Positions 2,428-45,114 of a stretch of DNA of 49,860 bases are shown here, piece by piece. The stretch is from Candidatus Nanopelagicales bacterium. Its GTDB lineage: Bacteria > Actinomycetota > Actinomycetes > S36-B12. Under the pieces are notes generated by a model. It saw only the letters and a list, made by a program, of their open reading frames with translations. It did not search any database and was not told the origin of the DNA. The stretch is taken from contig JANQZS010000008.1 in the NCBI GenBank assembly GCA_030728405.1, forward strand, positions 1 to 49,860, given 5' to 3'. Within the stretch, counting starts at the first letter, position 1. Each line of letters begins with the position of its first letter. The position numbers and the translations under genes are program-made.

Positions 2428-2457
2428 TTGACGAGTGTCAGACCCGAGAGATACCTT
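2428..2457 (+). promoter_or_regulatory. Candidate promoter: TTGACG-N18-TACCTT. The same bases also read TGTCAGac-N8-TACCTT, resembling the mycobacterial RecA-independent (RecA-NDp, PafBC-type) motif tTGTCRgtg-N8-TAnnnT
   Basis: TTGACG lies at 2428-2433, TGTCAG at 2436-2441 and TACCTT at 2452-2457. The spacing matches both models. Motif match by eye only. Confidence 0.4.
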
Positions 2458-2466
2458 GATCACTGT

Positions 2467-2482
2467 TCGAACAGGTGTTCGA
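2467..2482 (+). promoter_or_regulatory. LexA operator (actinobacterial SOS/Cheo box)
   Basis: Perfect palindrome TCGAAC-AGGT-GTTCGA. It starts 10 nt after the candidate -10 and lies about 180 nt upstream of the HEPN gene start. Confidence 0.7.
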
Positions 2483-2661
2483 AATTACTCGTTAACACCT
2501 GTTTGGCACCTAGACCCGGATTCGCGGCCGGGTACTGGGCTAGATGGATCGCCTCGGTTGCCGCCGGTCGCCTCGACCCCGGCTGACGGCAGCCGAGGCT
2601 CCTCTGGCGGGTCATCGAAGTACGCACACGGATAGCTAGCCAAGTGAAAGGAAGCACCACG

Positions 2662-3057
2662 ATGACTCGCGCAGCACAAGATCTGATTCTCTCCGCCCGC
2701 CGGAGCTTGACCGAGGCCACTTTGGCCACCAGCCCTGAAAGCCGTTACAGCGCCGCGCACCTTTGCGCTCTTCGCGCCGCCGCCGCCGTTCTTGCAGCCC
2801 GCAGCACGTCTACTGGTCGGCAACGGGTTCGCAGCGTCTGGGTATTGCTACCCCAGATCGCTCCCGAGTTCGCCGAATGGGCTGAATTCTTTGCAGCCGG
2901 TGCGCGCAAGCGGGCGAGTGCGGAGGCGGGTATTCGCTGCGTCAGCCTTCGAGAGGCAGATGACCTTGTGCGTGACTCGGAGACTTTCTTGGCTCGGATC
3001 TGTGAATCCTTAGGTTTCGCGCATCAGCCCGCTTTGGCGGTTGCTGTCGCGATCTGA
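2662..3057 (+). CDS. SAV_6107-family HEPN-domain protein (small, function unknown)
   Basis: 131 aa from the ATG at 2662, which is preceded by AAAGGAAG. 'ESRYSAAHLCALRAAAAVLAAR...APEFAEWAEFFAAGARKRASAEAG...READDLVRDSETFL' is the pattern I recognise for this actinobacterial HEPN family. It contains RYSAAH (R-x4-H). Confidence 0.7.
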   Translation: MTRAAQDLILSARRSLTEATLATSPESRYSAAHLCALRAAAAVLAARSTSTGRQRVRSVWVLLPQIAPEFAEWAEFFAAGARKRASAEAGIRCVSLREADDLVRDSETFLARICESLGFAHQPALAVAVAI

Positions 3058-3113
3058 CCGCGCTGGTCCCGCGGTCGCACTGATCAAGACGCCTCCCGTC
3101 TGTCGATCAGCGT

Positions 3114-3165
3114 GACGGGCCTCGGTTCATCCCCCCGATACCGAGGCCCGTCCTCCCTCTTTTTG
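3114..3165 (+). terminator. Strong hairpin with a downstream T-run (terminator or attenuator) between the HEPN gene and the DnaE2-like gene
   Basis: Perfect 12-bp stem GACGGGCCTCGG (3114-3125) / CCGAGGCCCGTC (3141-3152), with a 15-nt loop. CTCCCTC follows, then TTTTT at 3160-3164. The T-run is 7 nt from the stem, so the element is not fully canonical. Confidence 0.5.
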
Positions 3166-3194
3166 ATCACCTCGATCTTTCGTCAGGAATCCTT

Positions 3195-6100
3195 GTGTCT
3201 GTATCCATCCCATTCGCCCACCTCCAGGTGGCGTCGAGTTACTCATTGCAGTTCGGGGCCAACCATCCAGAGGCGTTAGTGCAACGTGCAGCTGAACTTG
3301 GTCAGCAGGTAATGGCGCTCACCGATCGCGATGGGCTTTATGGCGCAGTTCAATGGGCACTGGCATGTCAAAAAGCCGGAATCAAGCCCGTACTTGGTGT
3401 GGATATCGCAGTAGAGCCAACAATCCCGGTTACTTCCCATGCAGTAGGTCAGGCCCGTCAAACCCCAGCCCGTCGCACTCCAGCCCGGGGAGGTGCGTGG
3501 GTTGATGAAGGGCGTCCTCGAGTAATGCTCATTGCTTCCAATGCACGTGGATGGGCATCGCTGTGTCGACTCGTCAGCATCGCCCACACTGGTGAGCACA
3601 CCGAGCGCGGCAAGCCATGGCTGCCGTGGGAAGCACTCGCGCAGAATCATGAAGGCGTGGTGGCGCTGTTAGGTGCGCAATCTGAACTCGGTCGGCTCAT
3701 GACCGCCGATCGTTCGTACCGATGTGATGCGGTGGTGCGACCGTGGCGTGCGGTTTTTGGCCGATGGTTGGGAATCGCCATCACGTCACATCGGCAATCG
3801 CGCGGACATCGGCATTCCACCGCTGTGGCTGCTCGCACTCTTGGGTGGGCGCGTAGCCAGCAATTGCCGGTGGTGCTCACTAATGCGGTGCGCTATCTCG
3901 ATCCCGCCGGCGCACATGTTGCCCAGGTACTTGATGCATCCCGGTTGCTTGTGCCACTGCGGTCAAAGCTGGTGGAGTCCGATAACGGTGAGGGGTATGT
4001 GAAATCGGGCGCAGAGATGGCGCAAATAGCTGAAGAGATCAGCCGTGCTGCGGGGGAACGCAATCCAGAAAAGTTGCTCACAGACACCATGCGGGTCGCC
4101 CAGTTCTGCGCCCTTGATCCGGTGGCAGATCTAGGCATTGGCCAGGTATTCGTACCAGAACTTGATGTCTTGCTCGGCCGGCCGGTTTCAGCCACTCAGG
4201 CCGATCACATCTTGATGAGCAGATGCCGTGATGCGCTTCCGGTTCGCTACCCGAGAGCTGACGATCAGCGGGTGGCCGCAGATCGTCTCGATGCGGAGAT
4301 GGCCACGATCCAGCACCTGGGCTTCTCTGGCTATTTCTTAACCGTTGCTGAAGTCGTCGAGATGATCAAAGCTAAGGGTGTGCGCGTTGCTGCGCGCGGT
4401 TCGGGAGCGGGCAGTCTTGTCACTCATCTCTTGGGAATATCCGGAGCAGATCCGATTCGCCACGGACTTTTGATGGAACGTTTTCTCTCCCCGTTGCGGA
4501 GAGCTTTGCCAGATATCGATATCGACGTTGAATCGGCTCGACGCATTGAAGCGTATGAGTGGATATTCGAACGGTTCGGCGCCAAGCGGGTTGCTTGCGT
4601 TTCCATGATGGAGACCTATCGGGTGCGGCACGCGGTCCGTGATGTTGGTGCCGCAATGGGTTTACCCGCGGCTGATATCGATACTTTCGCGAAGTCTTTT
4701 CCACATCTACGCGCCCGGCATGCACGGTCGGCACTCGCCGATCTCCCTGAGCTGCGTTCATCCTCCTTCGGCAAACTTGCTGCTGCTGGCAAACTCGATC
4801 ATTTCCTTGATCTCGTTGAGGCACTTGATGGATTGCCTCGCCATGTGGCAATGCATCCGTGTGGGGTGTTGCTCTCCGATGCGAGTCTGCTCGATCGCAC
4901 GCCCGTAGAACGCAGTGGTGCAGGATTCATGATGAGTCACTTCGATAAGCACGATGTCGAGCACATGGGGTTGCTCAAACTTGATGTATTAGGTGTGCGC
5001 ATGCAATCAGCAATGGCGTATGCGCTAGATGAAATTAACCGAACAACCGGTGAGCATGTAGAACTTGATGATTCTGCGTTAGCCGATGCTGCAACTTTTG
5101 AGTTAATTCGAACAACCCGCACCCTCGGATGTTTTCAGATCGAATCGCCGGGGCAACGCGAGTTGATTGGCAAGTTCGCTCCAGAGACTTTTGCCGATCT
5201 CATTATCGACATTTCACTTTTCCGGCCCGGCCCGGTGAAATCCGACATGATCACGCCGTTTCTGCGCGCCCGTCAGGGGTGGAGTGAACCGGTGTATCTG
5301 CATCCTGATCTGAAACCATTCCTCGAAGAAACATGCGGAGTGGTGGTTTTCCATGAGCAAGTACTCCAGATCATCTCGACCATGACCGGCTGCTCGCTCG
5401 CCGAAGCCGATGAGTCTCGGCGCTCGATGGGTTCACCGGACGGAATGGACGATGTGCGCGCGTGGTTCTACCCAGCGGCGCTGCGTCGTCGCTATGACCT
5501 CGACACGGTAGAGAAAGTGTGGGAGGTACTGCGCGCCTTCGCCTCCTTCGGATTTTGTAAGGCGCATGCGGCAGCTTTTGCGTTGCCGACCTATCAATCC
5601 GCATGGCTCAAGACTCATCATCCGGCTGCCTTCTTTGCTGGAGTGCTGACTCACGATCCAGGGATGTATCCCAAGCGGTTAATTCTTGATGATGCGCGTC
5701 ACTTCGGGATCGCAGTTCTCGGCCTTGATGTCAACGCATCCCGTGATACCTATCGGGTTGAACACGTGGCAGATAGGAAATGGGGGATTCGAGTCCCGTT
5801 CACTGAAGTATCGGGAGTGAGTTCTGCTGAGGTGGAGCGGCTGATGGAAGCCCAACCCTTTGCAGATCTCTCTGACACCTGGAATCGTGCCGGACTCTCT
5901 CGTCCTGTTGCAGAAAGTTTGGTGGTAGCCGGCGCATTTGATGCACTGCACTCGTTGGGCCAAGCATCCGCTGCTCGCAGCAGGCGGATAACTCGTCGTG
6001 ATTTGTTGCTGCAGATTGCTGACCTTGACCGATATCGCCGGTCCTCAGCAGGGCTTCCTCCTGCGCAGTTGTCTCTCGATCTCACTGATCATGTTGCCGC

Positions 6101-6716
6101 CAACGTCCCCGCTGGTCTGCCTGAGATGGACCCAGCTGAGCGGGTGCGGGCTGAAGTTCAGGTGACCGGTCTTGACATCAGCGCGCATGTGATCGATTTC
6201 TACGCGGATCTACTCGATGTGATCGGCACCACCAAAGCCACGGATCTATTAAACGGTCGGTCGCGCCGGCAAGTATTCATCGGTGGAGTGAAAGTTGCTG
6301 TGCAAACCCCACCGGTTCGTAGTGGTCGGCGAGTCATTTTCTTAACTCTCGATGACTCCACCGGGCCGGTAGACGCTGCGTTCTTTGAAGATGCGCAGGG
6401 TCCCTACGCGCAGACCGTGTTTTCCTCCTGGTTGCTATTGATTCGAGGTGAGTTGCGAAGGACCGGTCCGCGTGGGGTTTCAGTGCGCGCTACCGGTTGT
6501 TGGGAGTTAGGTGTCCTGCGCAGGCTCTGGCGGGAGGAGGGGATCGGCGCGGTGCGTGCGTTATTGGCTGAGAACCCGGTCGATCCGACCGCACCCACTT
6601 CTCGGCCAGTCCTTACGCACCCAAGTGGTTTCCGGCAATCCCCATACGCAGACGTGGCCCCAGCAGGCGCGCCGGCGAAGCTCTGGCACAGCAGTCCGGG
6701 GAGTTCGGGTTGGTAG
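3195..6716 (+). CDS. dnaE2: DNA polymerase III alpha-subunit paralogue (error-prone DnaE2-like), with a degenerate PHP domain
   Basis: 1173 aa. The Pol IIIα catalytic motifs are kept: 'LPDIDIDVES' and 'GLLKLDVLGV'. It ends with an OB-fold region and a 'KLWHSSPGSSGW' tail. The N-terminus 'FAHLQVASSYSLQFGA' lacks the HxH/D metal ligands seen in the window's other dnaE ('FVHLHVHTEYSMLDGA'). Confidence 0.85.
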   Translation: MSVSIPFAHLQVASSYSLQFGANHPEALVQRAAELGQQVMALTDRDGLYGAVQWALACQKAGIKPVLGVDIAVEPTIPVTSHAVGQARQTPARRTPARGGAWVDEGRPRVMLIASNARGWASLCRLVSIAHTGEHTERGKPWLPWEALAQNHEGVVALLGAQSELGRLMTADRSYRCDAVVRPWRAVFGRWLGIAITSHRQSRGHRHSTAVAARTLGWARSQQLPVVLTNAVRYLDPAGAHVAQVLDASRLLVPLRSKLVESDNGEGYVKSGAEMAQIAEEISRAAGERNPEKLLTDTMRVAQFCALDPVADLGIGQVFVPELDVLLGRPVSATQADHILMSRCRDALPVRYPRADDQRVAADRLDAEMATIQHLGFSGYFLTVAEVVEMIKAKGVRVAARGSGAGSLVTHLLGISGADPIRHGLLMERFLSPLRRALPDIDIDVESARRIEAYEWIFERFGAKRVACVSMMETYRVRHAVRDVGAAMGLPAADIDTFAKSFPHLRARHARSALADLPELRSSSFGKLAAAGKLDHFLDLVEALDGLPRHVAMHPCGVLLSDASLLDRTPVERSGAGFMMSHFDKHDVEHMGLLKLDVLGVRMQSAMAYALDEINRTTGEHVELDDSALADAATFELIRTTRTLGCFQIESPGQRELIGKFAPETFADLIIDISLFRPGPVKSDMITPFLRARQGWSEPVYLHPDLKPFLEETCGVVVFHEQVLQIISTMTGCSLAEADESRRSMGSPDGMDDVRAWFYPAALRRRYDLDTVEKVWEVLRAFASFGFCKAHAAAFALPTYQSAWLKTHHPAAFFAGVLTHDPGMYPKRLILDDARHFGIAVLGLDVNASRDTYRVEHVADRKWGIRVPFTEVSGVSSAEVERLMEAQPFADLSDTWNRAGLSRPVAESLVVAGAFDALHSLGQASAARSRRITRRDLLLQIADLDRYRRSSAGLPPAQLSLDLTDHVAANVPAGLPEMDPAERVRAEVQVTGLDISAHVIDFYADLLDVIGTTKATDLLNGRSRRQVFIGGVKVAVQTPPVRSGRRVIFLTLDDSTGPVDAAFFEDAQGPYAQTVFSSWLLLIRGELRRTGPRGVSVRATGCWELGVLRRLWREEGIGAVRALLAENPVDPTAPTSRPVLTHPSGFRQSPYADVAPAGAPAKLWHSSPGSSGW

Positions 6717-6732
6717 GGGTAAGGATGGGTGA

Positions 6733-7977
6733 ATGAGTCGTAGTCAGGTGCGCCGGCCCGCGGGCTTCGTGGGCTTCGGCGACGACGATTCCAGTTGCCC
6801 CATCCTGCATGTGGATATGGATGCTTTCTATGCCTCGGTGGAGTTGCGCACGCGGCCGGAGTTGATCGGGCAACCCGTGATCGTCGGTGGCGGAGGTGGG
6901 CGTGGCGTAGTGCTCTCTGCAACCTACGAAGCACGTGCATTGGGGATCCATTCGGCAATGCCGATCGCGCGCGCGCACCGGCTTGCACCACAAGCAATCT
7001 TCATCGAACCCACGCATGGGCTGTATTCCGAAGTGAGCGCGGGAGTGATGGAGATCTTTGAGTCCATTACTCCAATCGTTGAACCGCTCAGTCTTGATGA
7101 GGCATTTCTTGATGTCTCTGGCGCTTTGCGAAGACTCGGCACACCCACATCGATTGCCCATCTGATTCGGGCGCGAGTAGTTGCTGAGCAGGGGATCACC
7201 TGTTCGGTTGGGGTTGCGAGTACCAAGTTCGTCGCGAAGTTGGCATCTACTCGATCAAAACCGGATGGCTTGCTGGTCATCCCCATCGATAAAGTACTGG
7301 CGTTTTTGCATCCGCTCCCTGTCGGTGCACTGTGGGGGGTGGGTGAGCGCACCGAGGAGTCTTTGCATCGGTTAGGGCTGCGCACGGTCGGGGATATTGC
7401 ACATACACCCCTTGACACCATGAAACGAGCGCTCGGCGAGGCAGCCGGAGTCCAGCTTCACGAACTTTCGTGGGGTCGGGATAACCGCAGCGTCACACCT
7501 CATCAACCGGATAAGAGCATTGGCAATGAGAGCACGTTCAACCAAGACGTGGACGATCCCGAAGTGATCCTGCGCCATTTGATGCGGCTCTCAGATCAAG
7601 TAGCCGGCCGAATGCGCAATGCCGGACACGTGGGTCGGACTATCAGCATCAAGATTCGATTTGCCGATTTCAGCACCATCACTAGGTCTCGAACAATGCA
7701 AGTTCCCACGGATACCGCCAAAGAGATCTTCGACGTTGCGCGCGGTTTATATGAGGCGCTAGGTCTTCAGCGGGTTCGGATTCGCCTCGTGGGGGTGCGA
7801 ATGGAAGGGTTGGAAGATGCGAGTGAAGCCCCCCACCAGATGACCTTTGACGAACCCGCGCATGGGCATAGAGATGCTGAGGTGGCCATCGATGCCCTGC
7901 GTAGTCGATTCGGGGCCACCGCGGTGCAGCCGGGGCGCCTCACACCGGGCAAGACTGAACAAAAGGGGCAAGAATGA
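6733..7977 (+). CDS. dinB: DNA polymerase IV (Y-family translesion polymerase)
   Basis: 'ILHVDMDAFYASVE', 'SLDEAFLDVS' and 'GVGERTEESLHRLGLRTVGD' are Y-family motifs. An AAGGATGGG Shine-Dalgarno precedes the ATG. It starts 17 nt after the DnaE2-like stop. Confidence 0.9.
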   Translation: MSRSQVRRPAGFVGFGDDDSSCPILHVDMDAFYASVELRTRPELIGQPVIVGGGGGRGVVLSATYEARALGIHSAMPIARAHRLAPQAIFIEPTHGLYSEVSAGVMEIFESITPIVEPLSLDEAFLDVSGALRRLGTPTSIAHLIRARVVAEQGITCSVGVASTKFVAKLASTRSKPDGLLVIPIDKVLAFLHPLPVGALWGVGERTEESLHRLGLRTVGDIAHTPLDTMKRALGEAAGVQLHELSWGRDNRSVTPHQPDKSIGNESTFNQDVDDPEVILRHLMRLSDQVAGRMRNAGHVGRTISIKIRFADFSTITRSRTMQVPTDTAKEIFDVARGLYEALGLQRVRIRLVGVRMEGLEDASEAPHQMTFDEPAHGHRDAEVAIDALRSRFGATAVQPGRLTPGKTEQKGQE

Positions 7978-8068
7978 GGGTCGGGTTCCCCTCGAAGCAG
8001 AACATGCTTATCCTTGGGGGAGTAAACGCGAGCTGCCTGCCAGCCCGCCCGACCGAGAGGGGGTCGTA

Positions 8069-8476
8069 ATGCCGCTATCTGAGCATGAGCAGCGTCTGCT
8101 CGAACAGATGGAAAAGGCGCTGTATGCCGAAGACCCCAAATTCGCTACGAGCCTGCGCTCCACATCTGTAGGAGCAGCCAGCCGTGGTCGAGCTGCCCTC
8201 GGTGTGCTGGGACTTTTCGCTGGCATGGGATTGATCTTGGCTGGCATGGCCGCCACGGTGATTGCACTTGGTGTTGCTGGTTTCGTCGTCATGCTTATTG
8301 GTGCCGTCATCACTTACACCGCATTTTCCACACGCACTGTCGTCACTGTTGTTGATGAAGAAGGCAACGAGATTCCTCAAGCCGCTGCGCCTCAGGCTCC
8401 GCCAGCTCAGGGCAACGGATTCATGGACCGACTTGAAGATCGCTGGCGTAAGCGCGCAGAAGGCGGCGAGCAGTAA
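8069..8476 (+). CDS. DUF3040 family membrane protein
   Basis: 'MPLSEHEQRLLEQMEKALYAEDPKFA' followed by two hydrophobic helices. GAGAGGGGG Shine-Dalgarno before the ATG at 8069. The upstream extension to 7847 overlaps dinB and was discarded. Confidence 0.8.
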   Translation: MPLSEHEQRLLEQMEKALYAEDPKFATSLRSTSVGAASRGRAALGVLGLFAGMGLILAGMAATVIALGVAGFVVMLIGAVITYTAFSTRTVVTVVDEEGNEIPQAAAPQAPPAQGNGFMDRLEDRWRKRAEGGEQ

Positions 8477-9745
8477 TTAACTCGCTGCCCCGCTAGGTAC
8501 TTCGGTAGCAACCGGCGGAGGAAAGTCGCACGTACTTGAAGCAGGGAGACCTTCAAATCTCTCCCACATCCAGCGCACCACACTCGGGCCCGCATCGAGT
8601 CCCGCGGTCATGTGGCCGACCCCACCCATCCACAAAGACGTGAGCGTTGATCCGGCTGCGCACCACTTTTCTTCGAGGTAGGCATTTGGTTCTGGAAGCA
8701 CTACTTCATCTGCAGTGCCCTGAGCGAGGAAGAACGGCAGATCGGCGGGCAGAGGTGCTGGCGTCTGAGCTTCCATAGCCGCAAGCCACTCGGGAACTGT
8801 CAGCGGATTCTTCTCGAAGAAATTCTGTCCGTAAATGTTCTGTCGCACCGTGGCTTCGAGTGCTGCGTTCTTCACGCAATCCTCGGCCAAACTCTCGTAA
8901 GAATTTTGGGCTTCGGAGGTGAGGATGGAATCCACGGGTAATTCGGGATATTCCAGCGGCCATGAGCGCAACACTTCCGCACCGATCACCCAGCCGATGA
9001 GCCCGGACCATTGAGCATCCAAAATCCGGGTCAGTTCAGCCGCTGGTGCGGCCGCCGCGACTCCCACCAAATTCAGTTCGGGTGCAAGCTCGGCCGCCAA
9101 TTGACCGGTCCAGATCGCGGAGTGACCCCCTTGGGAGTGGCCATACACACCCCAGGATTTAGAAGTGTCAGCTCCGGGAAGTTGGGCCACGGCTCGCACG
9201 CTGTTGACTACATCCCGGGCTTCTTGCTCACCGACCAGGTAACGCTCGATGCCTGGCGTGCCTAGGCCGTAGTAGTCAGTGGCAACAACCGCCCAACCCA
9301 GATCGAGCATTTGAGGCAGGAAGGTTACAAGTTGGCTCGTCGGGTCTGCCGAACGAGAGGGCGCGCATCCATCCCCTTGGCCAACGGTGCCGTGGGCCCA
9401 CGCCAGGGTTGGCCTACCGCTCGTAGCGGCCGGGGCATCAGGGATGAAAGCCGTTCCTGATGCTGCAGCCAATTCATCGTCAGTAGTGGCTGTGACGTAG
9501 AGAATTCGGTAGGCGGTGCCGCCGGAGACCGCGATCGGAAGTTGCTCAAAGTTCAGCAGGTCTCCTGCGAGGGCGCCGTTCAGCGGTGGGGGCTCATAAA
9601 AGGGGGCAATGCGATCTTGGGCGATGTCAGTATTCACCCGTTCGCTGAGGTAGATCCCCACCCCGACCATAAATCCAGCTACGAGAATCGCGCTGAGCGC
9701 GATGCCAATCAACTTCAAGACTTCACGAAAAGGTAGGTGCGGCAC
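8477..9745 (-). CDS. Secretory lipase (LIP family) / alpha-beta hydrolase with N-terminal membrane anchor
   Basis: 'GHSQGG' nucleophile elbow and N-terminal TM segment 'LKLIGIALSAILVAGFMVGVGIYL'. Overall LIP-like layout. GTG start. Its stop abuts the DUF3040 stop. Confidence 0.7.
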   Translation of the reverse strand: MPHLPFREVLKLIGIALSAILVAGFMVGVGIYLSERVNTDIAQDRIAPFYEPPPLNGALAGDLLNFEQLPIAVSGGTAYRILYVTATTDDELAAASGTAFIPDAPAATSGRPTLAWAHGTVGQGDGCAPSRSADPTSQLVTFLPQMLDLGWAVVATDYYGLGTPGIERYLVGEQEARDVVNSVRAVAQLPGADTSKSWGVYGHSQGGHSAIWTGQLAAELAPELNLVGVAAAAPAAELTRILDAQWSGLIGWVIGAEVLRSWPLEYPELPVDSILTSEAQNSYESLAEDCVKNAALEATVRQNIYGQNFFEKNPLTVPEWLAAMEAQTPAPLPADLPFFLAQGTADEVVLPEPNAYLEEKWCAAGSTLTSLWMGGVGHMTAGLDAGPSVVRWMWERFEGLPASSTCDFPPPVATEVPSGAAS

Positions 9746-12027: not shown

Positions 12028-13230
12028 ATGAATGCCGTGTCACTCGTTGTTGTGGTTGCTGCCGTTGTCATAGGCGCTGCCATCGGCTGGCTGGTTGCTG
12101 CCCGCACATGGAAAGCGCGAATGGGTGAACTCGATGCTCAGTTGCGCCGTGAAAGTGAAGTCGGCGCCGCCGAGTTGCGCACGGAACTTGCCGGAGCAGA
12201 AGGCGAATTGCGCTTACTCAAAGCAGACCGCGAGAAACTGCAGGTGGAACAGGCAGAGGGTAAATCACTTGAAGAGAAGATTCAGCCGCTCAAGGATGCT
12301 CTTGAGTCGGTCCGGATCCAAGCTCAGCGGGCCAATGTGGAGCGGGCTGAAGCAGATGCCCAATTGCGTGAACAGATTGAAGGTGTTCAGCGCGGTTACA
12401 CATCCTTAGAGGGGGCCACCAGGCAATTGGTTGCAGCCATGTCTTCTGGGCAATCTCGTGGCCAATGGGGCGAAATGCAACTTGAGCAATTGCTTGATCA
12501 CTCGGGCTTGATTGAAGGAACCCACTACAAACGCCAAGACACTCGCCTTGGCGCAACCGGATCTTCTCGCCCAGACATTGTCATCATGCTTCCCGGCGGG
12601 GGTGAAATCCTTATTGATGCGAAATTTCCATTTGATGCCTATTGGAAAGCCATCGAAGCGGGTCAAACGCCCGAATCGGCGCTGCATCTGAAAAAGCACT
12701 CTGACGACGTTCTGGCCCGGGCCAAAGAACTATCCGGCAAGCGTTACTCAGACTCATCATCAAGTCCCGATTTCGTCATCATGTTCCTTCCGTTGGAGTC
12801 ATTGCTATCTAGTGCTCTAGAAGCGAATGGCCTCATCTTGGAAGAGACTTTCCAGCGCAACGTCATTTTGGCGACACCTACCTCGATGCTGGGAATGCTG
12901 CGCACAATTTCATTCGGATATCAGCGTCGGTTGATGGCTGATAACGCTGAAGAAATCCGGGAAGCCGGGGCTGAAATGCTCAATCGCCTTGGTGCGGCAG
13001 TTGAGCACATTGATGGCATGCGGCGCGGGCTCACGCAAGCCGTTAAGGGCTATAACAGTTTTGTCGGGTCCTTTGACAGCCGAGTAATGACTCAGGCGCG
13101 CAAGATGAGTGAATTGGGAGTGTCTACTCAGCGAAGTCTGGAAGCACCCGAAGAGATAAGTGAAACCCCGCGAGAGACGAGGAATTCACCGGCACTTCCC
13201 GAGGCCGAGGAACTATTTCTAGATTCGTAG
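12028..13230 (+). CDS. rmuC: DNA recombination protein RmuC
   Basis: N-terminal TM helix, a long coiled coil, then 'GQWGEMQLEQLLDHSGLIEGTHYKRQ...PDIVIMLPGGGEILIDAKFP'. This is the RmuC nuclease-like core. Confidence 0.85.
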   Translation: MNAVSLVVVVAAVVIGAAIGWLVAARTWKARMGELDAQLRRESEVGAAELRTELAGAEGELRLLKADREKLQVEQAEGKSLEEKIQPLKDALESVRIQAQRANVERAEADAQLREQIEGVQRGYTSLEGATRQLVAAMSSGQSRGQWGEMQLEQLLDHSGLIEGTHYKRQDTRLGATGSSRPDIVIMLPGGGEILIDAKFPFDAYWKAIEAGQTPESALHLKKHSDDVLARAKELSGKRYSDSSSSPDFVIMFLPLESLLSSALEANGLILEETFQRNVILATPTSMLGMLRTISFGYQRRLMADNAEEIREAGAEMLNRLGAAVEHIDGMRRGLTQAVKGYNSFVGSFDSRVMTQARKMSELGVSTQRSLEAPEEISETPRETRNSPALPEAEELFLDS

Positions 13231-13253: not shown

Positions 13254-15371
13254 TCAGTCTTCGATGGTCACGAGGTGCAGATCTCGGGTGGCCCGGGTGC
13301 AGGCAACATAGATATCTGCTCCATGAGGTGCCTGACGACTGATCTCTTCAGGATCAACAACAAACACAATGTCGAATTCAAGTCCTTTGGTATCGCGCAC
13401 GGGGAGTACTGCGATCCGCGCATCAACTGCTGTTTCTCCACGACCAAACTCCGCCGAAGTCAACAACTCATTCCACGAATCGAGTTGCGCATCGGGGACA
13501 ATCACTACGACCCGTCCAGGCTCGTCTGCCGTGGTCTGCACGAGGAATTCCGACAATGACTGCTTGCTGATCCGCTCATTAATCGTTGGACTGCCATCTC
13601 TAATTGCAGTGAGATGCGGCGCGGAACCACCGGCCTGTTGGAGTAATCTACTTGCGGTATCGGCCGTCTGCCTTGTGATTCGGTAGGTAACCGAAAGCTG
13701 GTGAACAGTAATCGAATCGGACGCCCATTCAAGGGCTTGTTGCCAAGATCGCGCTCCGGCCGGATGCGATCCTTGTTGCAAATCGCCCACAATTGTCATT
13801 GACCGTCTGACTGCTCTGCGTTGCACGGAGCGCCATGCCATCCGGCTTAGCTCCTGCGCCTCATCGACCACAACATGGCCATATACCCACTCGCGATCTG
13901 AAAGTGCTCGCTCGACGATCGAGGATCCGCTTCGTTCCACATGAAGGGCGTTCGCGGTATGAAGAGAGCGTGCATCAAGTTCGTCAACATCGCTTCGGCT
14001 TGCTGTGCGAGCTGGGGGAGTCCAGATGCCAAGCAGGTCTGCACATTCATCGAGCAACGGAACGTCGTCGACAGTCCAGGGCGCTGCAGCATCTCGCTGC
14101 AACAGGCGAATTTCCGCATGGGTCAGAATTCCTTGAGCGCATTGCACGGCGAACGCCTCATCGTTAAAGAACCGAGTGAGCAGGCGCTCTGGGCTGGTGG
14201 GTAGCCACATGAGGTTGAGGGTGCGTCGGATACCAACATCATCCACGATTTCACCGATGATGTCGGTGCGCACATCCACATCATCCGGGTCATCGCCGGA
14301 GCTTCTGGCGATTGTTCTGGCCATCTGATCAAGAAGTCGCCGGAGGAATGGCTCGCGGGCTTCATGGAACGTCGCATTTTTGGGAACAGCTTTCAACGCC
14401 GAGCGCAGTTGGGTGGTGGTGACTGCAATAGTTCTACCGTTCTCGGTACGAATGGTGATGTCTTGGTCGGGCACTCGCTTGCACGAGTCCACCAGTCGTG
14501 CAATCACCTCAACCATGCGGAGGTCACCCTTGAGGCGCGCAACCTCTGTGGCGTCGGACTTTGACGTAGAGACGCCCGGATAAAGCTGGCCTGGAGTTAG
14601 AAGCACAACATCGGTTTCCCCCAAGCTTGGAAGAACTTGATCGATGTAGCGGAGAAAGACCGGGCTCGGCCCAATGATGAGTACGCCATCTTGGGCTAGG
14701 CGATCTCGGTACGTGTAGAGGAGCCAGGCTGCGCGGTGGAGCGCGACCACGGTTTTGCCAGTACCGGGACCACCCTCAACCACGGTGACTCCGGCTAGTG
14801 GGCTGCGGATAATTGCATCTTGATCCGTTGCGATGGTTGCCAGAATGTCTGCCATGCGTCCATCACGTGGCGCCAACACGGAAGCAGCAGCGGCATCGTT
14901 ATTGGCGGAGGTCGCTCCCGTGAGATCCCCGAAAAATTCATCGTCGACGTGGGTGACCTCGTGTGTTGAACCATCTTCCTTGATGATGATTCGTCGTCGC
15001 CTTTCTAATCCCATGGGGTCGACGGTTGTCGCCTGATAGAACGGGGCTGAGTGTGGGGCACGCCAATCGAGCAGAAGCGGCTCGCCATCTGGGGTGCGCA
15101 ATCCGATGCGACCTATTCGGTGACTCGTGCCATCGTCTGCATCGATGCGACCGAAACAAAGCCGGTTGGATCCGGCGAGAGCGGCTCGTTCCTGTCGGTG
15201 CACATCACCGAGGAGTGCCTCACGTTCTAGGACATCTTGTCCGGTACCGGTAGCTGGTGCGTTGGTGAGTGCATCTCGCCTGCGGCGAAGATCTTTGAGG
15301 TAGTCACCGAGAAGCGCGTAGGCAGAGTCAACAAAACTCTGCTCCTCCTGCAAACTCGATGACACGTGCAC
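13254..15371 (-). CDS. helD: HelD-type UvrD-like helicase/ATPase (RNA polymerase-associated, class II actinobacterial HelD-like)
   Basis: Walker A 'GGPGTGKT' and Walker B 'VVDEAQE'. C-terminal 'LPVRDTKGLEFDIVFVV' and 'YVACTRATRDL'. The N-terminal extension is typical of HelD. The start could be the second GTG at 15365, which has better spacing from AGGAG. Confidence 0.75.
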   Translation of the reverse strand: MHVSSSLQEEQSFVDSAYALLGDYLKDLRRRRDALTNAPATGTGQDVLEREALLGDVHRQERAALAGSNRLCFGRIDADDGTSHRIGRIGLRTPDGEPLLLDWRAPHSAPFYQATTVDPMGLERRRRIIIKEDGSTHEVTHVDDEFFGDLTGATSANNDAAAASVLAPRDGRMADILATIATDQDAIIRSPLAGVTVVEGGPGTGKTVVALHRAAWLLYTYRDRLAQDGVLIIGPSPVFLRYIDQVLPSLGETDVVLLTPGQLYPGVSTSKSDATEVARLKGDLRMVEVIARLVDSCKRVPDQDITIRTENGRTIAVTTTQLRSALKAVPKNATFHEAREPFLRRLLDQMARTIARSSGDDPDDVDVRTDIIGEIVDDVGIRRTLNLMWLPTSPERLLTRFFNDEAFAVQCAQGILTHAEIRLLQRDAAAPWTVDDVPLLDECADLLGIWTPPARTASRSDVDELDARSLHTANALHVERSGSSIVERALSDREWVYGHVVVDEAQELSRMAWRSVQRRAVRRSMTIVGDLQQGSHPAGARSWQQALEWASDSITVHQLSVTYRITRQTADTASRLLQQAGGSAPHLTAIRDGSPTINERISKQSLSEFLVQTTADEPGRVVVIVPDAQLDSWNELLTSAEFGRGETAVDARIAVLPVRDTKGLEFDIVFVVDPEEISRQAPHGADIYVACTRATRDLHLVTIED

Positions 15372-41577: not shown

Positions 41578-44500
41578 ATGCCTTCGGAGGATTCGTTCGT
41601 ACACCTCCATGTGCACACCGAGTATTCAATGCTCGACGGAGCGGCGCGGCTAAAAGACCTCTTTACAGAGGCGAAACGGCTAGAAATGCCGGCGGTTGCC
41701 ATGACCGACCACGGCAACCTCTTTGGCGCCTACGACTTCTACAAGACCGCGCAAGCTCATGGAATCAAGCCCATCATTGGGATCGAAGGTTATTTCGCTC
41801 CGCAGGGCAGGTTTGAGCGCAAGCCGTTTGATTTCGGTGGTGGGTTCGACGAAGGGACCCCGGAAGACCCCGGCGCAGGTCGCGGTAAACACAGCTACAC
41901 CCACATGACCCTGTGGGCAGAAAATTCACCCGGGATGCACAATCTTTTCCGGCTTTCATCATTAGCCAGCCTGGAAGGGATGTATCACAAACCGCGCTTT
42001 GATCGCGATCTGCTGCAGACCTACGGCAAGGGGATCATCGGTACCACGGGGTGTCCGAGCGGCGAAGTCAACCGCTGGCTGCAGGCGGGGCAATATGACA
42101 AAGCCCGGGCTGCGGCAGCGGATATGCGCGACATTCTTGGCGCCGAAAACTATTTCTGTGAGCTCATGGATCACGGGCTCGCCATCGAAAGACGTTTTCG
42201 TGAAGATCTGATCAAGATTGCGCGCGATCTCAAGCTTCCGCTAGTGGCTACCAACGATTTGCATTACGTGCACGCGAGCGATGCCGACATGCACGAAGCT
42301 TTGTTGTGCATCGGTACCCGAACCACGATGGACGACCCCAAACGCTTCCGATTTGATGCCCGAGATTTCTACGTCAAATCCGCCGCTGAAATGCGTTCGG
42401 TATGGTCCGAATTCCCCGAGGCCTGCGATAACACCCTTCTCATCGCAGAGCGCTGCGACGTGTCATTTAACGAAGGCGCAAATCTGATGCCCGCCTTCGA
42501 CGTGCCGGTAGGTGAGTCAGAAGAGTCGTGGTTGGGTAAAGAGGTCGAACGGGGGCTGCTGCACAGATACAAAGGCGCGGTCCCGGAAAACGTTCGCAAG
42601 CAGGCCGAATACGAAATCGGCGTCGTGAATCAAATGGGCTTTCCTGGCTACTTTCTGGTGGTCGCAGACCTTTGCCGCCATGCAAAAGAAAGCGGAATCA
42701 GGGTCGGCCCAGGTCGTGGGTCGGCAGCAGGAGCAATGATCGCTTACGCACTGGGAATCACAGATCTCGATCCCATTGAGCACGGATTGCTGTTCGAGCG
42801 GTTCTTGAACCCGGAGAGAATTTCCATGCCTGATATCGACATCGACTTCGATGAGCGTCGTCGCGGCGACATGATTCGCTACGCAACTGAAAAGTACGGC
42901 GAAGAACGCGTCGCGCAAATCGTCACCTACGGCTCCATTAAGGCCAAGGCTGCGATCAAGGACAGTGCACGGGTTCTGGGCTATCCGTACGCGGTCGGAG
43001 ACAAAATCACCAAAGCAATGCCACCTGCGGTGATGGGAAAAGATCTCTCTCTTGCAGGCGTGTTTGATCCGAGTGAGTCGCGGTATGGCGAAGCTGCGGA
43101 ATTCCGCGCGCTGTATGAAACTGATCCAGAGGTGAGAAGAGTCGTTGATACAGCCAAGGCCCTGGAGGGATTGAAGCGCCAACCCGGCGTGCACGCGGCT
43201 GGTGTGATTCTGTGTCGCGAGCCACTCCTTGACGTAGTGCCACTGTGGCGACGCGAACTTGACGGCGCGGTCATCACCCAATTCGACATGGGTGTGTGTG
43301 AATCACTCGGCTTGCTCAAAATGGATTTCCTGGGACTACGAAACCTGTCTGTTTTAGATGACTGTCTTCACAACATTGAAGTGAACGGCGATTCTCGAAT
43401 CGTCCTCGAAGAGCTCACGCTGGATGATCCGGTTACGTATGAGTTGCTCTCTCGCGGTGACACCTTGGGGGTTTTCCAGCTCGATGGTGGTCCTATGCGC
43501 GCACTGCTCCGCTCGATGCAGCCGGATAACTTTGAAGACATTTCAGCGGTGCTTGCGTTGTATCGCCCCGGACCCATGGGTGCTAACGCGCACAACGACT
43601 ACGCAGACCGAAAAAATGGGCGAAAGCCTGTAGTGCCGATCCATCCTGAACTAGAAGAGCCGCTCTCGGAGATTCTCGGTGACACCTACGGATTGATCGT
43701 TTACCAGGAACAGGTCATGGCCATCGCCCAACAACTGGCTGGCTACTCCCTCGGCAAGGCGGATTTGCTGCGCCGCGCGATGGGCAAGAAGAAGAAATCC
43801 ATTCTTGACGCTGAATTCGTCCCGTTTCGAGACGGCATGCGTGAGCGCGGCTATTCAGACGGCTCAATTAGCACTCTGTGGGAAATTCTCGTCCCCTTCT
43901 CGGACTATGCGTTCAATAAGGCACACACCGCTGGCTACGGATTGGTGTCGTACTGGACCGCATTCCTGAAAGCCAACTTCCCTGCGGAGTACATGGCCGC
44001 GCTGCTCACCAGTGTTAAAGATGACAAAGACAAGTCAGCCATCTACCTCAACGAGTGCCGACGAATGGGCATCAAGGTGCTACCCCCTGACGTGAATGAC
44101 TCTGATTTTGATTTCACGCCACGGGGCACAGACATCCGTTTTGGGCTTTCGGCAATCCGAAACGTGGGTGGAAACGTCGTCGATTCTATTTTGGCAACCC
44201 GCAAAAGTGTGGGTCGGTTCGCAGATTTCCATGATTTCATCGCGAAGGTGGAATCTTCTGTCTGCAACAAGCGTGTGGTGGAATCGCTCATCAAAGCTGG
44301 CGCATTCGACTCTTTGGGCCACACGAGAAAAGGCCTCACATTCATTCACGAATCTGTTCTTGATAATGCGATCGACATCAAACGCGCAGAAGCGATCGGA
44401 CAATTTGACCTCTTTGGTGGATTGGGCACGGATGAGGTGACCTCTCTTGTCGAGCGTCCAGTCATTCCAGTGGGCGAATGGGAAAAGAGCGTTTTGCTAG

Positions 44501-45114
44501 CCCATGAGCGCGACATGCTGGGACTGTATGTTTCTGATCATCCTTTGCAAGGACTCGAGGGTTTGCTTGCGCAGTCATCTGACCGGAGCATTGCATCGCT
44601 CTTGATGGATGATCGACTCGACACCGCGGTTGTCACTCTCGGTGGGTTGGTCACGTCCGTGCAACGCAAAACGACCAAAAAGGGTTCTTCATGGGCCATC
44701 GTCACCCTCGAAGATCTTGAGGGATCCGTTGACATCATGGTCTTCCCGCAAACGTATAACCAAGTGAGCACGATGCTCGTCGACGACACCGTCATCATCG
44801 TGAAAGCGCGGGCGGAACGATCTGACGACGAAGGCGTGCGGGTTATCGCACTCGAGGTCAGTGCTCCGGACACATCAGAAGCGATTTCTGGGCCTGTTCG
44901 ATTGAGCATGGCTGCTGCTCGGTGCATTCCTCCGCTAGTGGAAAGACTCAAGGAAGTTTTGGCAGCTCATCCCGGAACCACTGAGGTGCACTTACACCTG
45001 ACGGGTGGCGCCAACACAACAGTTCTCCGACTCGACGATGCGCTTCGAGTGACGCCGTCTCCATCGCTGTATGGCGATCTCAAAGCGCTCTTGGGTCCTT
45101 CGTGTTTGAGTTAA
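41578..45114 (+). CDS. dnaE: DNA polymerase III alpha subunit (replicative DnaE1)
   Basis: Intact PHP domain 'FVHLHVHTEYSMLDGA...MTDHGNLFG', catalytic 'MPDIDIDFDE' and 'LLKMDFLGLRNL', clamp motif 'QFDLF' and an OB fold. Confidence 0.95.
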   Translation: MPSEDSFVHLHVHTEYSMLDGAARLKDLFTEAKRLEMPAVAMTDHGNLFGAYDFYKTAQAHGIKPIIGIEGYFAPQGRFERKPFDFGGGFDEGTPEDPGAGRGKHSYTHMTLWAENSPGMHNLFRLSSLASLEGMYHKPRFDRDLLQTYGKGIIGTTGCPSGEVNRWLQAGQYDKARAAAADMRDILGAENYFCELMDHGLAIERRFREDLIKIARDLKLPLVATNDLHYVHASDADMHEALLCIGTRTTMDDPKRFRFDARDFYVKSAAEMRSVWSEFPEACDNTLLIAERCDVSFNEGANLMPAFDVPVGESEESWLGKEVERGLLHRYKGAVPENVRKQAEYEIGVVNQMGFPGYFLVVADLCRHAKESGIRVGPGRGSAAGAMIAYALGITDLDPIEHGLLFERFLNPERISMPDIDIDFDERRRGDMIRYATEKYGEERVAQIVTYGSIKAKAAIKDSARVLGYPYAVGDKITKAMPPAVMGKDLSLAGVFDPSESRYGEAAEFRALYETDPEVRRVVDTAKALEGLKRQPGVHAAGVILCREPLLDVVPLWRRELDGAVITQFDMGVCESLGLLKMDFLGLRNLSVLDDCLHNIEVNGDSRIVLEELTLDDPVTYELLSRGDTLGVFQLDGGPMRALLRSMQPDNFEDISAVLALYRPGPMGANAHNDYADRKNGRKPVVPIHPELEEPLSEILGDTYGLIVYQEQVMAIAQQLAGYSLGKADLLRRAMGKKKKSILDAEFVPFRDGMRERGYSDGSISTLWEILVPFSDYAFNKAHTAGYGLVSYWTAFLKANFPAEYMAALLTSVKDDKDKSAIYLNECRRMGIKVLPPDVNDSDFDFTPRGTDIRFGLSAIRNVGGNVVDSILATRKSVGRFADFHDFIAKVESSVCNKRVVESLIKAGAFDSLGHTRKGLTFIHESVLDNAIDIKRAEAIGQFDLFGGLGTDEVTSLVERPVIPVGEWEKSVLLAHERDMLGLYVSDHPLQGLEGLLAQSSDRSIASLLMDDRLDTAVVTLGGLVTSVQRKTTKKGSSWAIVTLEDLEGSVDIMVFPQTYNQVSTMLVDDTVIIVKARAERSDDEGVRVIALEVSAPDTSEAISGPVRLSMAAARCIPPLVERLKEVLAAHPGTTEVHLHLTGGANTTVLRLDDALRVTPSPSLYGDLKALLGPSCLS

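Follow-up and report, generated by a model that had tools for sequence, protein, structure and literature searches.

We describe here a putative damage-inducible operon for error-prone polymerases that includes a small HEPN-family gene, found in a 49,860-nucleotide stretch of the genome of Candidatus Nanopelagicales bacterium (assembly GCA_030728405.1, contig JANQZS010000008.1, positions 1 to 49,860; hereafter the window). Behind a LexA (SOS) box, and on the same strand, lie a gene of the HEPN_SAV_6107 family, a paralogue of the DNA polymerase III (Pol III) alpha subunit and a gene for DNA polymerase IV (Pol IV), a Y-family polymerase (PolY). We favor the reading, with a probability of roughly 0.7, that these genes form a LexA-repressed translesion or mutagenic operon of the DnaE2B type, in which the HEPN gene is a conserved member and from which the standalone ImuB-C gene (DUF6504) has been lost in the window. 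A first-pass annotation of this DNA had already described a same-strand cassette headed by a LexA box, and each feature it listed is present in the window where and as it said; the box at 2467-2482 is the sole perfect one and all three genes lie on the + strand.

Conservation of the HEPN gene in translesion polymerase operons

The HEPN-polymerase neighborhood was surveyed from both sides. Relatives of the HEPN protein occurred in at least 504 species-level genomes, of which the best 80 were fetched, and 6 further loci came from protein look-ups; this census comprised 87 loci, 82 of them assessable. For the polymerase, an N-terminal profile of DnaE2B returned 80 metagenome loci, 63 of which had at least 900 nt of upstream sequence. 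The HEPN gene lay just upstream of a translesion polymerase gene in 75 of the 82 assessable loci. The gene directly downstream was DnaE2B in 44, mostly in the order LexA box-DUF6504-HEPN-DnaE2B-PolY-DUF3040; PolY alone followed in 16 and imuA'-imuB-like-dnaE2 in 15 (Micromonosporaceae and relatives), and no polymerase was near HEPN in 7. Viewed from DnaE2B, the HEPN gene stood upstream in 59 of 63 loci (57 with both DUF6504 and HEPN, 2 with HEPN only as in the window), DUF6504 was the only small gene in 2, as in Tessaracoccus, and 2 had neither. The census that the first-pass annotation had proposed is thus strongly positive in both directions, behind LexA boxes. The majority form has the HEPN gene enclosed by two mutasome genes, ImuB-C/DUF6504 and dnaE2B, and in 32 of 71 loci an estimated 30 nt or less separate the end of HEPN from the start of dnaE2B.

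The linkage extends to the classical mutasome genes. In a Micromonospora sp. (locus L046, 9460-16465) ImuA' (NF058630, 178 bits), an ImuB-like protein and a bona fide DnaE2 (NF004225, 1526 bits) are encoded behind HEPN, and the sole SOS-like boxes are two in tandem, with one mismatch each, upstream of HEPN, with none between HEPN and imuA'. Fourteen further loci resemble this one, with HEPN_SAV_6107 directly before a canonical imuA'-imuB-dnaE2 operon. Gene order therefore indicates that HEPN_SAV_6107 is no chance neighbor but a true, conserved part of this operon family.

Several observations weigh against our reading. Both censuses consist of the best 80 matches and are biased toward relatives of the window's proteins. 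In Streptomyces, the genus after which the family is named, the HEPN gene is solitary, in the arrangement HEPN-methyltransferase-DUF3040 near the dcw cluster and mraW, and lacks a LexA box even when 2 mismatches are allowed, and dnaE2B-dinB2 lies elsewhere in the genome with its own SOS-like box; the HEPN-polymerase link is therefore not obligatory. Deletion of dnaE2 in S. coelicolor gave no UV phenotype (PMC3273824). Pseudonocardiaceae keep the LexA box-DUF6504-HEPN arrangement with no adjacent polymerases, and DnaE2B operons lacking HEPN occur in Tessaracoccus and in five census loci (L115, L121, L125, L134 and L164). The solitary Streptomyces context probably explains why the 2013 HEPN survey listed SAV_6107 with no contextual association (PMC3710099). 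An expected position of SAV_6107 beside S. avermitilis dnaE2 was ruled out, as the two are not adjacent. In one S. avermitilis assembly (GCA_005405985.1; L167, 7001-10485) dnaE2B is called as two open reading frames (ORFs) of 690 and 496 aa, indicating a frameshift or sequencing error. The polymerase-free DUF6504-HEPN pair was seen in five loci of Pseudonocardiaceae and Actinomycetospora (L037, L045, L055, L069 and L079), with a ParA-like ATPase gene on the opposite strand before DUF3040.

These exceptions would fit a view in which HEPN is a bystander with an unrelated function of its own, and in which HEPN and DUF3040 form a frame between which translesion cassettes have been inserted or lost. 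A DUF3040 gene is downstream of the HEPN locus in every actinobacterial architecture, with polymerases or with none, and serves as marker of a locus that is conserved upstream of the dcw (mraZ) cluster; the interval between the two genes holds polymerases, a methyltransferase or a ParA-like gene; HEPN is kept in thousands of Streptomyces strains with neither adjacent polymerases nor an SOS box; and a few DnaE2B operons do without it. However, a frame does not explain why HEPN in the majority form sits inside the operon, between ImuB-C/DUF6504 and dnaE2B and downstream of the LexA box, nor the very tight HEPN-dnaE2B spacing of many loci. The Micromonospora boxes, placed before HEPN with none before imuA', also speak against it, as does the DUF6504-HEPN pair staying behind a LexA box even after the polymerases are gone. 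We regard the bystander explanation as unlikely and retain HEPN as an operon member.

A DnaE2B-type polymerase and its Y-family neighbor

The Pol III alpha paralogue (3195-6716, + strand) is 1173 aa long, with PHP, core, finger, HhH and OB domains, and scores below the NCBIfam cut-offs for both DnaE1 (654 < 1002) and DnaE2 (NF004225, 634 < 939). Its PHP metal motifs are degenerate (HLQVASSYS and LTDRDG; the window's DnaE1 has HLHVHTEYS and MTDHGN), the polymerase motifs PDIDID and KLDVLG are intact, and it carries an internal clamp-motif-like QLSLDL at residue 958 and the C-terminal KLWHSSPGSSGW. The N-terminal 400 aa match DnaE2B of Tessaracoccus (44% identity, 285 bits) and of Streptomyces alboniger (42%, 274 bits). 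The same Tessaracoccus query scored 119 bits against a DnaE2A and 105 against the window's DnaE1, and the S. alboniger query 92 bits against that DnaE2A and 68 against DnaE1. A degenerate PHP motif of the form HL[HQ]VAS / TDRDG is common to the whole DnaE2B clade. Best-match comparison, used here in place of a full phylogeny, thus assigns the paralogue to the DnaE2B clade, distinct from DnaE1 and DnaE2A and equally distant from both.

Pol IV (6733-7977, + strand; 414 aa) begins 16 nt past the dnaE stop. It passes the NCBIfam model NF003015 (403 > 367), keeps the catalytic DMDAFY and SLDE motifs, and ends in a QMTFDE motif and a RecA-NT-like tail, AIDALRSRFGATAVQ. The RecA-NT assignment of this tail rests on alignment to the Tessaracoccus PolY, with which it shares the pattern QxxxxDEP...AIDxxxxRFGxxAVQ; Pfam DUF4113 gave no match at E <= 0.01. 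Overall, Pol IV shares 51% identity with PolY from the modeled Tessaracoccus DnaE2B-PolY-ImuB-C-RecA complex. To judge from these motifs, a putatively active Y-family polymerase with a RecA-NT-like tail adjoins DnaE2B.

Polymerase pairs of this kind have been described. A 2026 survey in Nucleic Acids Research (PMC12926913) split DnaE2 into DnaE2A, which functions with ImuA-ImuB, and DnaE2B, which occurs in genomes without imuA/imuB and is paired with an active or inactive PolY carrying a RecA-NT motif and sometimes with a standalone ImuB-C. The survey described DnaE2B-PolY(-ImuB-C)-RecA modules, reported earlier in 2019 (PMC6511836), and modeled an AlphaFold tetramer for Tessaracoccus lapidicaptus VEP41449-VEP41451 (PMC12926913). 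Since DnaE2B and PolY of the window match the published module, the polymerase module belongs to a kind already described. The first-pass annotation was therefore right to call the first enzyme a PHP-degenerate paralogue that is no canonical DnaE2 and the second an active-looking Y-family polymerase, and wrong to regard the system as a whole as uncharacterized, because DnaE2-Y-family pairs lacking ImuA/ImuB were already on record (PMC12926913, PMC6511836, PMC3273824). DnaE2B, with its dead PHP site, intact polymerase site and clamp-motif-like QLSLDL, would act together with PolY, presumably with RecA and the beta clamp, to bypass or extend past lesions.

Absence of ImuA', ImuB and a standalone ImuB-C

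No ImuA' and no ImuB or second Y-family gene were found in the window; queries with Micromonospora ImuA' and ImuB recovered the active PolY alone. The claim of the first-pass annotation that the cassette lacks imuA and imuB thus holds within the 50-kb window. ImuB-C/DUF6504 was also absent from the 49.9-kb window by tblastn, and an iterated hidden Markov model (HMM) gave a 16.6-bit noise match inside hisD. Only 195 nt lie between the LexA box and the HEPN start codon. A hidden or degraded DUF6504 in this interval, including the ORF at 2302-2586, was rejected, as no Pfam or HMM signal was seen and the ORF spans the operator.

The Tessaracoccus module, in which the small gene before dnaE2B encodes ImuB-C, a 99-aa beta-rich protein that matches Pfam DUF6504, is among the closest described counterparts. 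It has the same DnaE2B clade with the degenerate PHP motif, the same active PolY with a clamp-like motif and RecA-NT-like tail, the same order of small gene-dnaE2B-polY, an SOS box and no imuA/imuB. The two differ in the small gene, which in the window encodes a helical HEPN_SAV_6107 protein and in Tessaracoccus the beta-barrel ImuB-C that the window lacks. We considered that the HEPN protein might be the survey's "ImuB-C", given its identical position before dnaE2B; this was ruled out, as relatives encode DUF6504 and HEPN as separate genes. Most relatives of the window carry both, and by this comparison the window appears to be a rarer, derived variant that lost the standalone ImuB-C (DUF6504) usually found just upstream of HEPN.

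The Streptomyces dnaE2-dinB2 operon (SCO1739-SCO1738), which carries an SOS box and in experiments responds to UV and methyl methanesulfonate with about 6-fold induction (PMC3273824), resembles the cassette in that a DnaE2B-type polymerase is followed directly by a Y-family gene, the promoter contains an SOS box and there is no ImuB-C. Unlike in the window, its Y-family partner scDinB2 is truncated, classed as inactive and 34% identical to the window's PolY; dnaE2 and dinB2 overlap by 4 bp, and the HEPN gene is neither adjacent nor equipped with an SOS box. The ImuA'-ImuB-DnaE2 mutasome is likewise LexA-controlled, pairs a non-replicative Pol III alpha paralogue with a partner of Y-family fold and in Micromonosporaceae is preceded by a HEPN_SAV_6107 gene. 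The window nevertheless falls outside that class, lacking ImuA', a dead ImuB and ImuB-C, with a DnaE below the DnaE2 cut-off and a PolY that keeps its catalytic carboxylates.

The promoter, the LexA box and a covarying leader hairpin

A candidate promoter read from the sequence lies at 2428-2457 (+ strand), with a -35 element TTGACG (2428-2433), an 18-nt spacer and a -10-like TACCTT (2452-2457). A phylogenetic footprint agrees with it: of 93 related leaders, 80 have TTGAC no more than 50 nt upstream of the LexA box, and in 55 of the 80 a TAnnnT follows after another 16-19 nt. A generic sigma-70 scan did not call the promoter at 2428-2457. About 10 nt downstream of the -10 hexamer is the LexA box TCGAACAGGTGTTCGA (2467-2482, + strand), the sole zero-mismatch match to TCGAAC-N4-GTTCGA in the window. 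A perfect box occupies the equivalent place, upstream of DUF6504/HEPN, in 59 of the 87 HEPN loci, most of the others have a one-mismatch box there, and in related loci the SOS box is not found between HEPN and dnaE2B. On its sequence the cassette has what defines the LexA/SOS regulon, an operator of the form TCGAAC-N4-GTTCGA overlapping a promoter.

We infer from this layout that the cassette is a LexA-repressed, damage-inducible operon whose genes are transcribed together. DNA damage would activate RecA and lead to LexA cleavage, upon which the promoter at 2428-2457 would fire, because the LexA box sits just 3' of the -10 hexamer. A single transcript would then carry a structured leader, the HEPN gene, a structured spacer, the DnaE2B polymerase and the active Y-family polymerase.

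Between the LexA box and the first gene, the leader contains an RNA hairpin (2545-2606, + strand) with a stem of 14-18 bp, about 17 bp in the window, that varies freely in sequence and an invariant loop, (G/A)CCUCGACCCC (about 2571-2581). In an alignment of 53 loci (A3), all 14 modeled pairs had compensatory double changes, and the loop CGACCC was invariant. The corresponding covariance model (R1) found exactly one match in the window, at 2545-2606 (47 bits, E 2.7e-5), and in 1.28 Mb of related loci all its matches were at leader positions on the + strand, among them matches in two loci that had not been used for training. A search of Rfam with the hairpin returned no family. The leader hairpin is thus a candidate new covarying element that appears confined to leaders of such SOS polymerase operons. 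Downstream, in many loci, the loop's complement (GGUCGAGG; GGGUCGAG) is enriched, suggesting a pseudoknot, and the copy in the window is imperfect. This enrichment is confounded in DUF6504 loci, where the loop complement coincides with codons for the conserved DDPVEV.

A structured spacer between the HEPN gene and dnaE2B

The 137-nt spacer between the HEPN gene and dnaE2B (3058-3194) folds with a minimum free energy of -55.7 kcal/mol (z = -4.7), and none of 200 shuffled sequences folds as well. It contains two stable hairpins (3078-3156, + strand) with the C-rich loops CCUCC and AUCCCCCC, followed by CUCCCUCUUUUU. The single "hairpin" of the first-pass annotation is therefore correct as a stable structure at this place and is refined here to a pair of stem-loops. 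Spacers of at least 80 nt occur at the HEPN-dnaE junction in about a third of related loci, with CCYCC or CCCC hairpin loops in 13 of 23 unique ones. Related spacers in three loci (L003, L010 and L071) have a YCCUGUGAC loop instead. In a close relative (L001) short tandem repeats make up the intergenic spacers at 7909-8000 and 8412-8480 (CCGGCCCCACTCGA about 4 times and CACCACATGTCCCCT 3 times), and the corresponding places in the window hold structured RNA or nothing.

The spacer resembles the 6C RNA (RF01066) in its two adjacent hairpins with C-run loops (CCUCC, CCCCCC) and in coming from an actinobacterial genome. It differs in its score, 38.5 bits where the gathering score is 47 (E 0.0026, from a search of 951 nt), in lying inside an operon spacer and not at the usual 6C locus, and in having relatives whose spacers the model does not recognize at E <= 0.1. 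Nothing in the whole window reaches an Rfam gathering score. A true 6C RNA was ruled out on these grounds. The hairpin was also rejected as a canonical intrinsic terminator, since a terminator scan did not call it.

The fold bears on whether the cassette is one transcription unit. Its very high stability and the U-rich stretch after it count against a single full-length transcript, in that part of the transcripts may end there. Taken further, the spacer element could be a terminator or an independent 6C-like small RNA, such that the SOS response yields mainly HEPN mRNA, with or without a small RNA, and the polymerases are expressed separately or by regulated read-through. This division into two units draws on the strength of the fold, the second hairpin with CUCCCUCUUUUU behind it, the sub-threshold 6C match and the comparable structured spacers in about a third of relatives. 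However, 3058-3194 contains no promoter-like site and no second LexA box, the hairpin is not called as a terminator, the relatives' spacers have no Rfam 6C match, and two thirds of relatives lack such a spacer and have HEPN and dnaE2B close together. We therefore think two separate units somewhat unlikely, and within a single operon the spacer element may attenuate or stabilize the transcript.

The HEPN_SAV_6107 protein

The first gene of the cassette (2662-3057, + strand) encodes a 131-aa protein that matches Pfam PF18726 with E 1.4e-33 (115.8 bits, cut-off 27.2). We place its start at the ATG at 2662, which has an AAGGAAG ribosome-binding site; the mechanically called ORF begins at GTG 2644. 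An AlphaFold2 model built with 37 homologues is an all-helical bundle (predicted local distance difference test score 89.4, predicted template-modeling score 0.83), and the best Foldseek matches in the PDB are the HEPN proteins 2hsb, 1wol, 1ufb, 7bxo and 3o10, with template-modeling scores of 0.59-0.65 and weak E-values (best 0.011). A PDB sequence search with the HEPN profile gave no match at E <= 10. Fold and profile together make the protein a member of the HEPN superfamily and of PF18726.

The last helix starts with READDLVR and, having no histidine, lacks the canonical Rx4-6H RNase motif. Invariant in the family are R28-x4-H33 in helix 2, the READDLVR motif and Q122 in the C-terminal tail; the tail is conserved as PHQxx[LM]xxxLLHVG, with low model confidence in this region. 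Because the canonical motif is absent, we read the protein as non-catalytic, most likely an accessory or regulatory subunit, and this is the least certain part of our explanation. Its role would be to work with the polymerase complex or to govern the deployment of that complex, and it may touch the polymerases physically. The invariant R28-x4-H33 counts against this assignment, as the protein could conceivably have an enzymatic activity.

Like other members of the HEPN superfamily (HEPN-MNT, DUF86; PMC3710099), the protein is a helical bundle of about 130 aa encoded beside a nucleotidyltransferase-type enzyme. It differs in lacking Rx4-6H in the canonical helix and an MNT partner, in being missing from defense and toxin-antitoxin databases, and in lying in a conserved chromosomal SOS operon. 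These points also bear on whether HEPN might be an SOS-induced RNase toxin or defense effector that halts growth independently of the polymerases, as in HEPN-MNT systems or abortive infection. The fold is right for such a role, R28-x4-H33 formally fits Rx4-6H and many HEPN families are RNases (PMC3710099), yet the R-x4-H lies in helix 2 while the canonical last helix carries READDLVR, and the 2013 survey puts the SAV_6107 family among those without the conserved motif (PMC3710099). Furthermore, no MNT or antitoxin partner was found beside the HEPN gene in any locus, PADLOC gave no match with it, and the gene sits on the chromosome, in a core region whose synteny looks vertical. We consider a toxin very unlikely and continue to favor a HEPN protein that would work with the polymerases.

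Relation to the literature and possible significance

In the literature searched, nothing combined HEPN with DnaE2, nothing mentioned DUF6504, and SAV_6107 appeared only in the 2013 HEPN survey. The HEPN gene goes unmentioned in the main text of the 2013, 2019 and 2026 papers on ImuB-C/DnaE2 operons, and likewise in the supplement text of the 2026 survey. No description of a link between this HEPN family and translesion polymerases was thus found, in agreement with the first reading of the sequence, and its gene order marks the HEPN gene as a robustly conserved member of these operons that had apparently gone undescribed. The subunit composition of these mutasomes is still being worked out, and a gene that is inside the operon in about nine of ten sampled loci, yet in no published model, could encode a subunit or regulator missed so far. 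With its conserved hairpin, the leader hints that error-prone polymerases are controlled after transcription as well, in addition to LexA. Natural variants with both small genes, with HEPN only (the window), with ImuB-C only and with neither provide ready comparisons for genetics and structure prediction.

A broader proposal, which we offer tentatively, is that HEPN_SAV_6107 could be a dedicated non-catalytic mutasome component across Actinomycetota, serving both DnaE2B-PolY and ImuA'-ImuB-DnaE2, which docks on the polymerase complex and gates it, and that expression of the whole operon could, after LexA release, also be under a leader riboregulator with the CCUCGACCCC loop. HEPN might dock on the Pol-beta-like palm of DnaE2, echoing HEPN-nucleotidyltransferase pairs, or alternatively through its conserved C-terminal PHQxx[LM] tail. 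If this proposal is true, the window, which lacks ImuB-C, would show that HEPN can suffice as the only small subunit.

Genomic setting

The window belongs to the chromosomal core of an actinobacterium, uncultured and of about 57% G+C, and contains mraZ-mraW...ftsZ-sepF, ileS, the replicative dnaE1 (41578-45114), hisD and hisC. The cassette lies about 10 kb upstream of mraZ and is divergent from a TetR-family regulator gene (1668-2339, - strand), which faces away from the SOS promoter and is the same neighbor in the independent contig L168. The layout TetR / HEPN / dnaE2B recurs in metagenome contigs L168 and L169, whose HEPN proteins are 97-98% identical to that of the window; since these contigs are independent and the layout is identical, the arrangement in the window is not an assembly artifact. 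Downstream of the cassette is a DUF3040 membrane-protein gene (8069-8476, + strand; Pfam PF11239, E 4e-26), whose membership in the operon is uncertain. An RmuC-family gene (12028-13230, + strand) and a UvrD-like SF1 helicase gene (13254-15371, - strand) lie 4-7 kb downstream of the cassette, and no LexA box was seen beside either. In one relative (L009) a sub-threshold match to the mraW RNA motif (RF01746; 37.3 bits vs 50) lies at 12229-12346 on the + strand, upstream of the dcw cluster.

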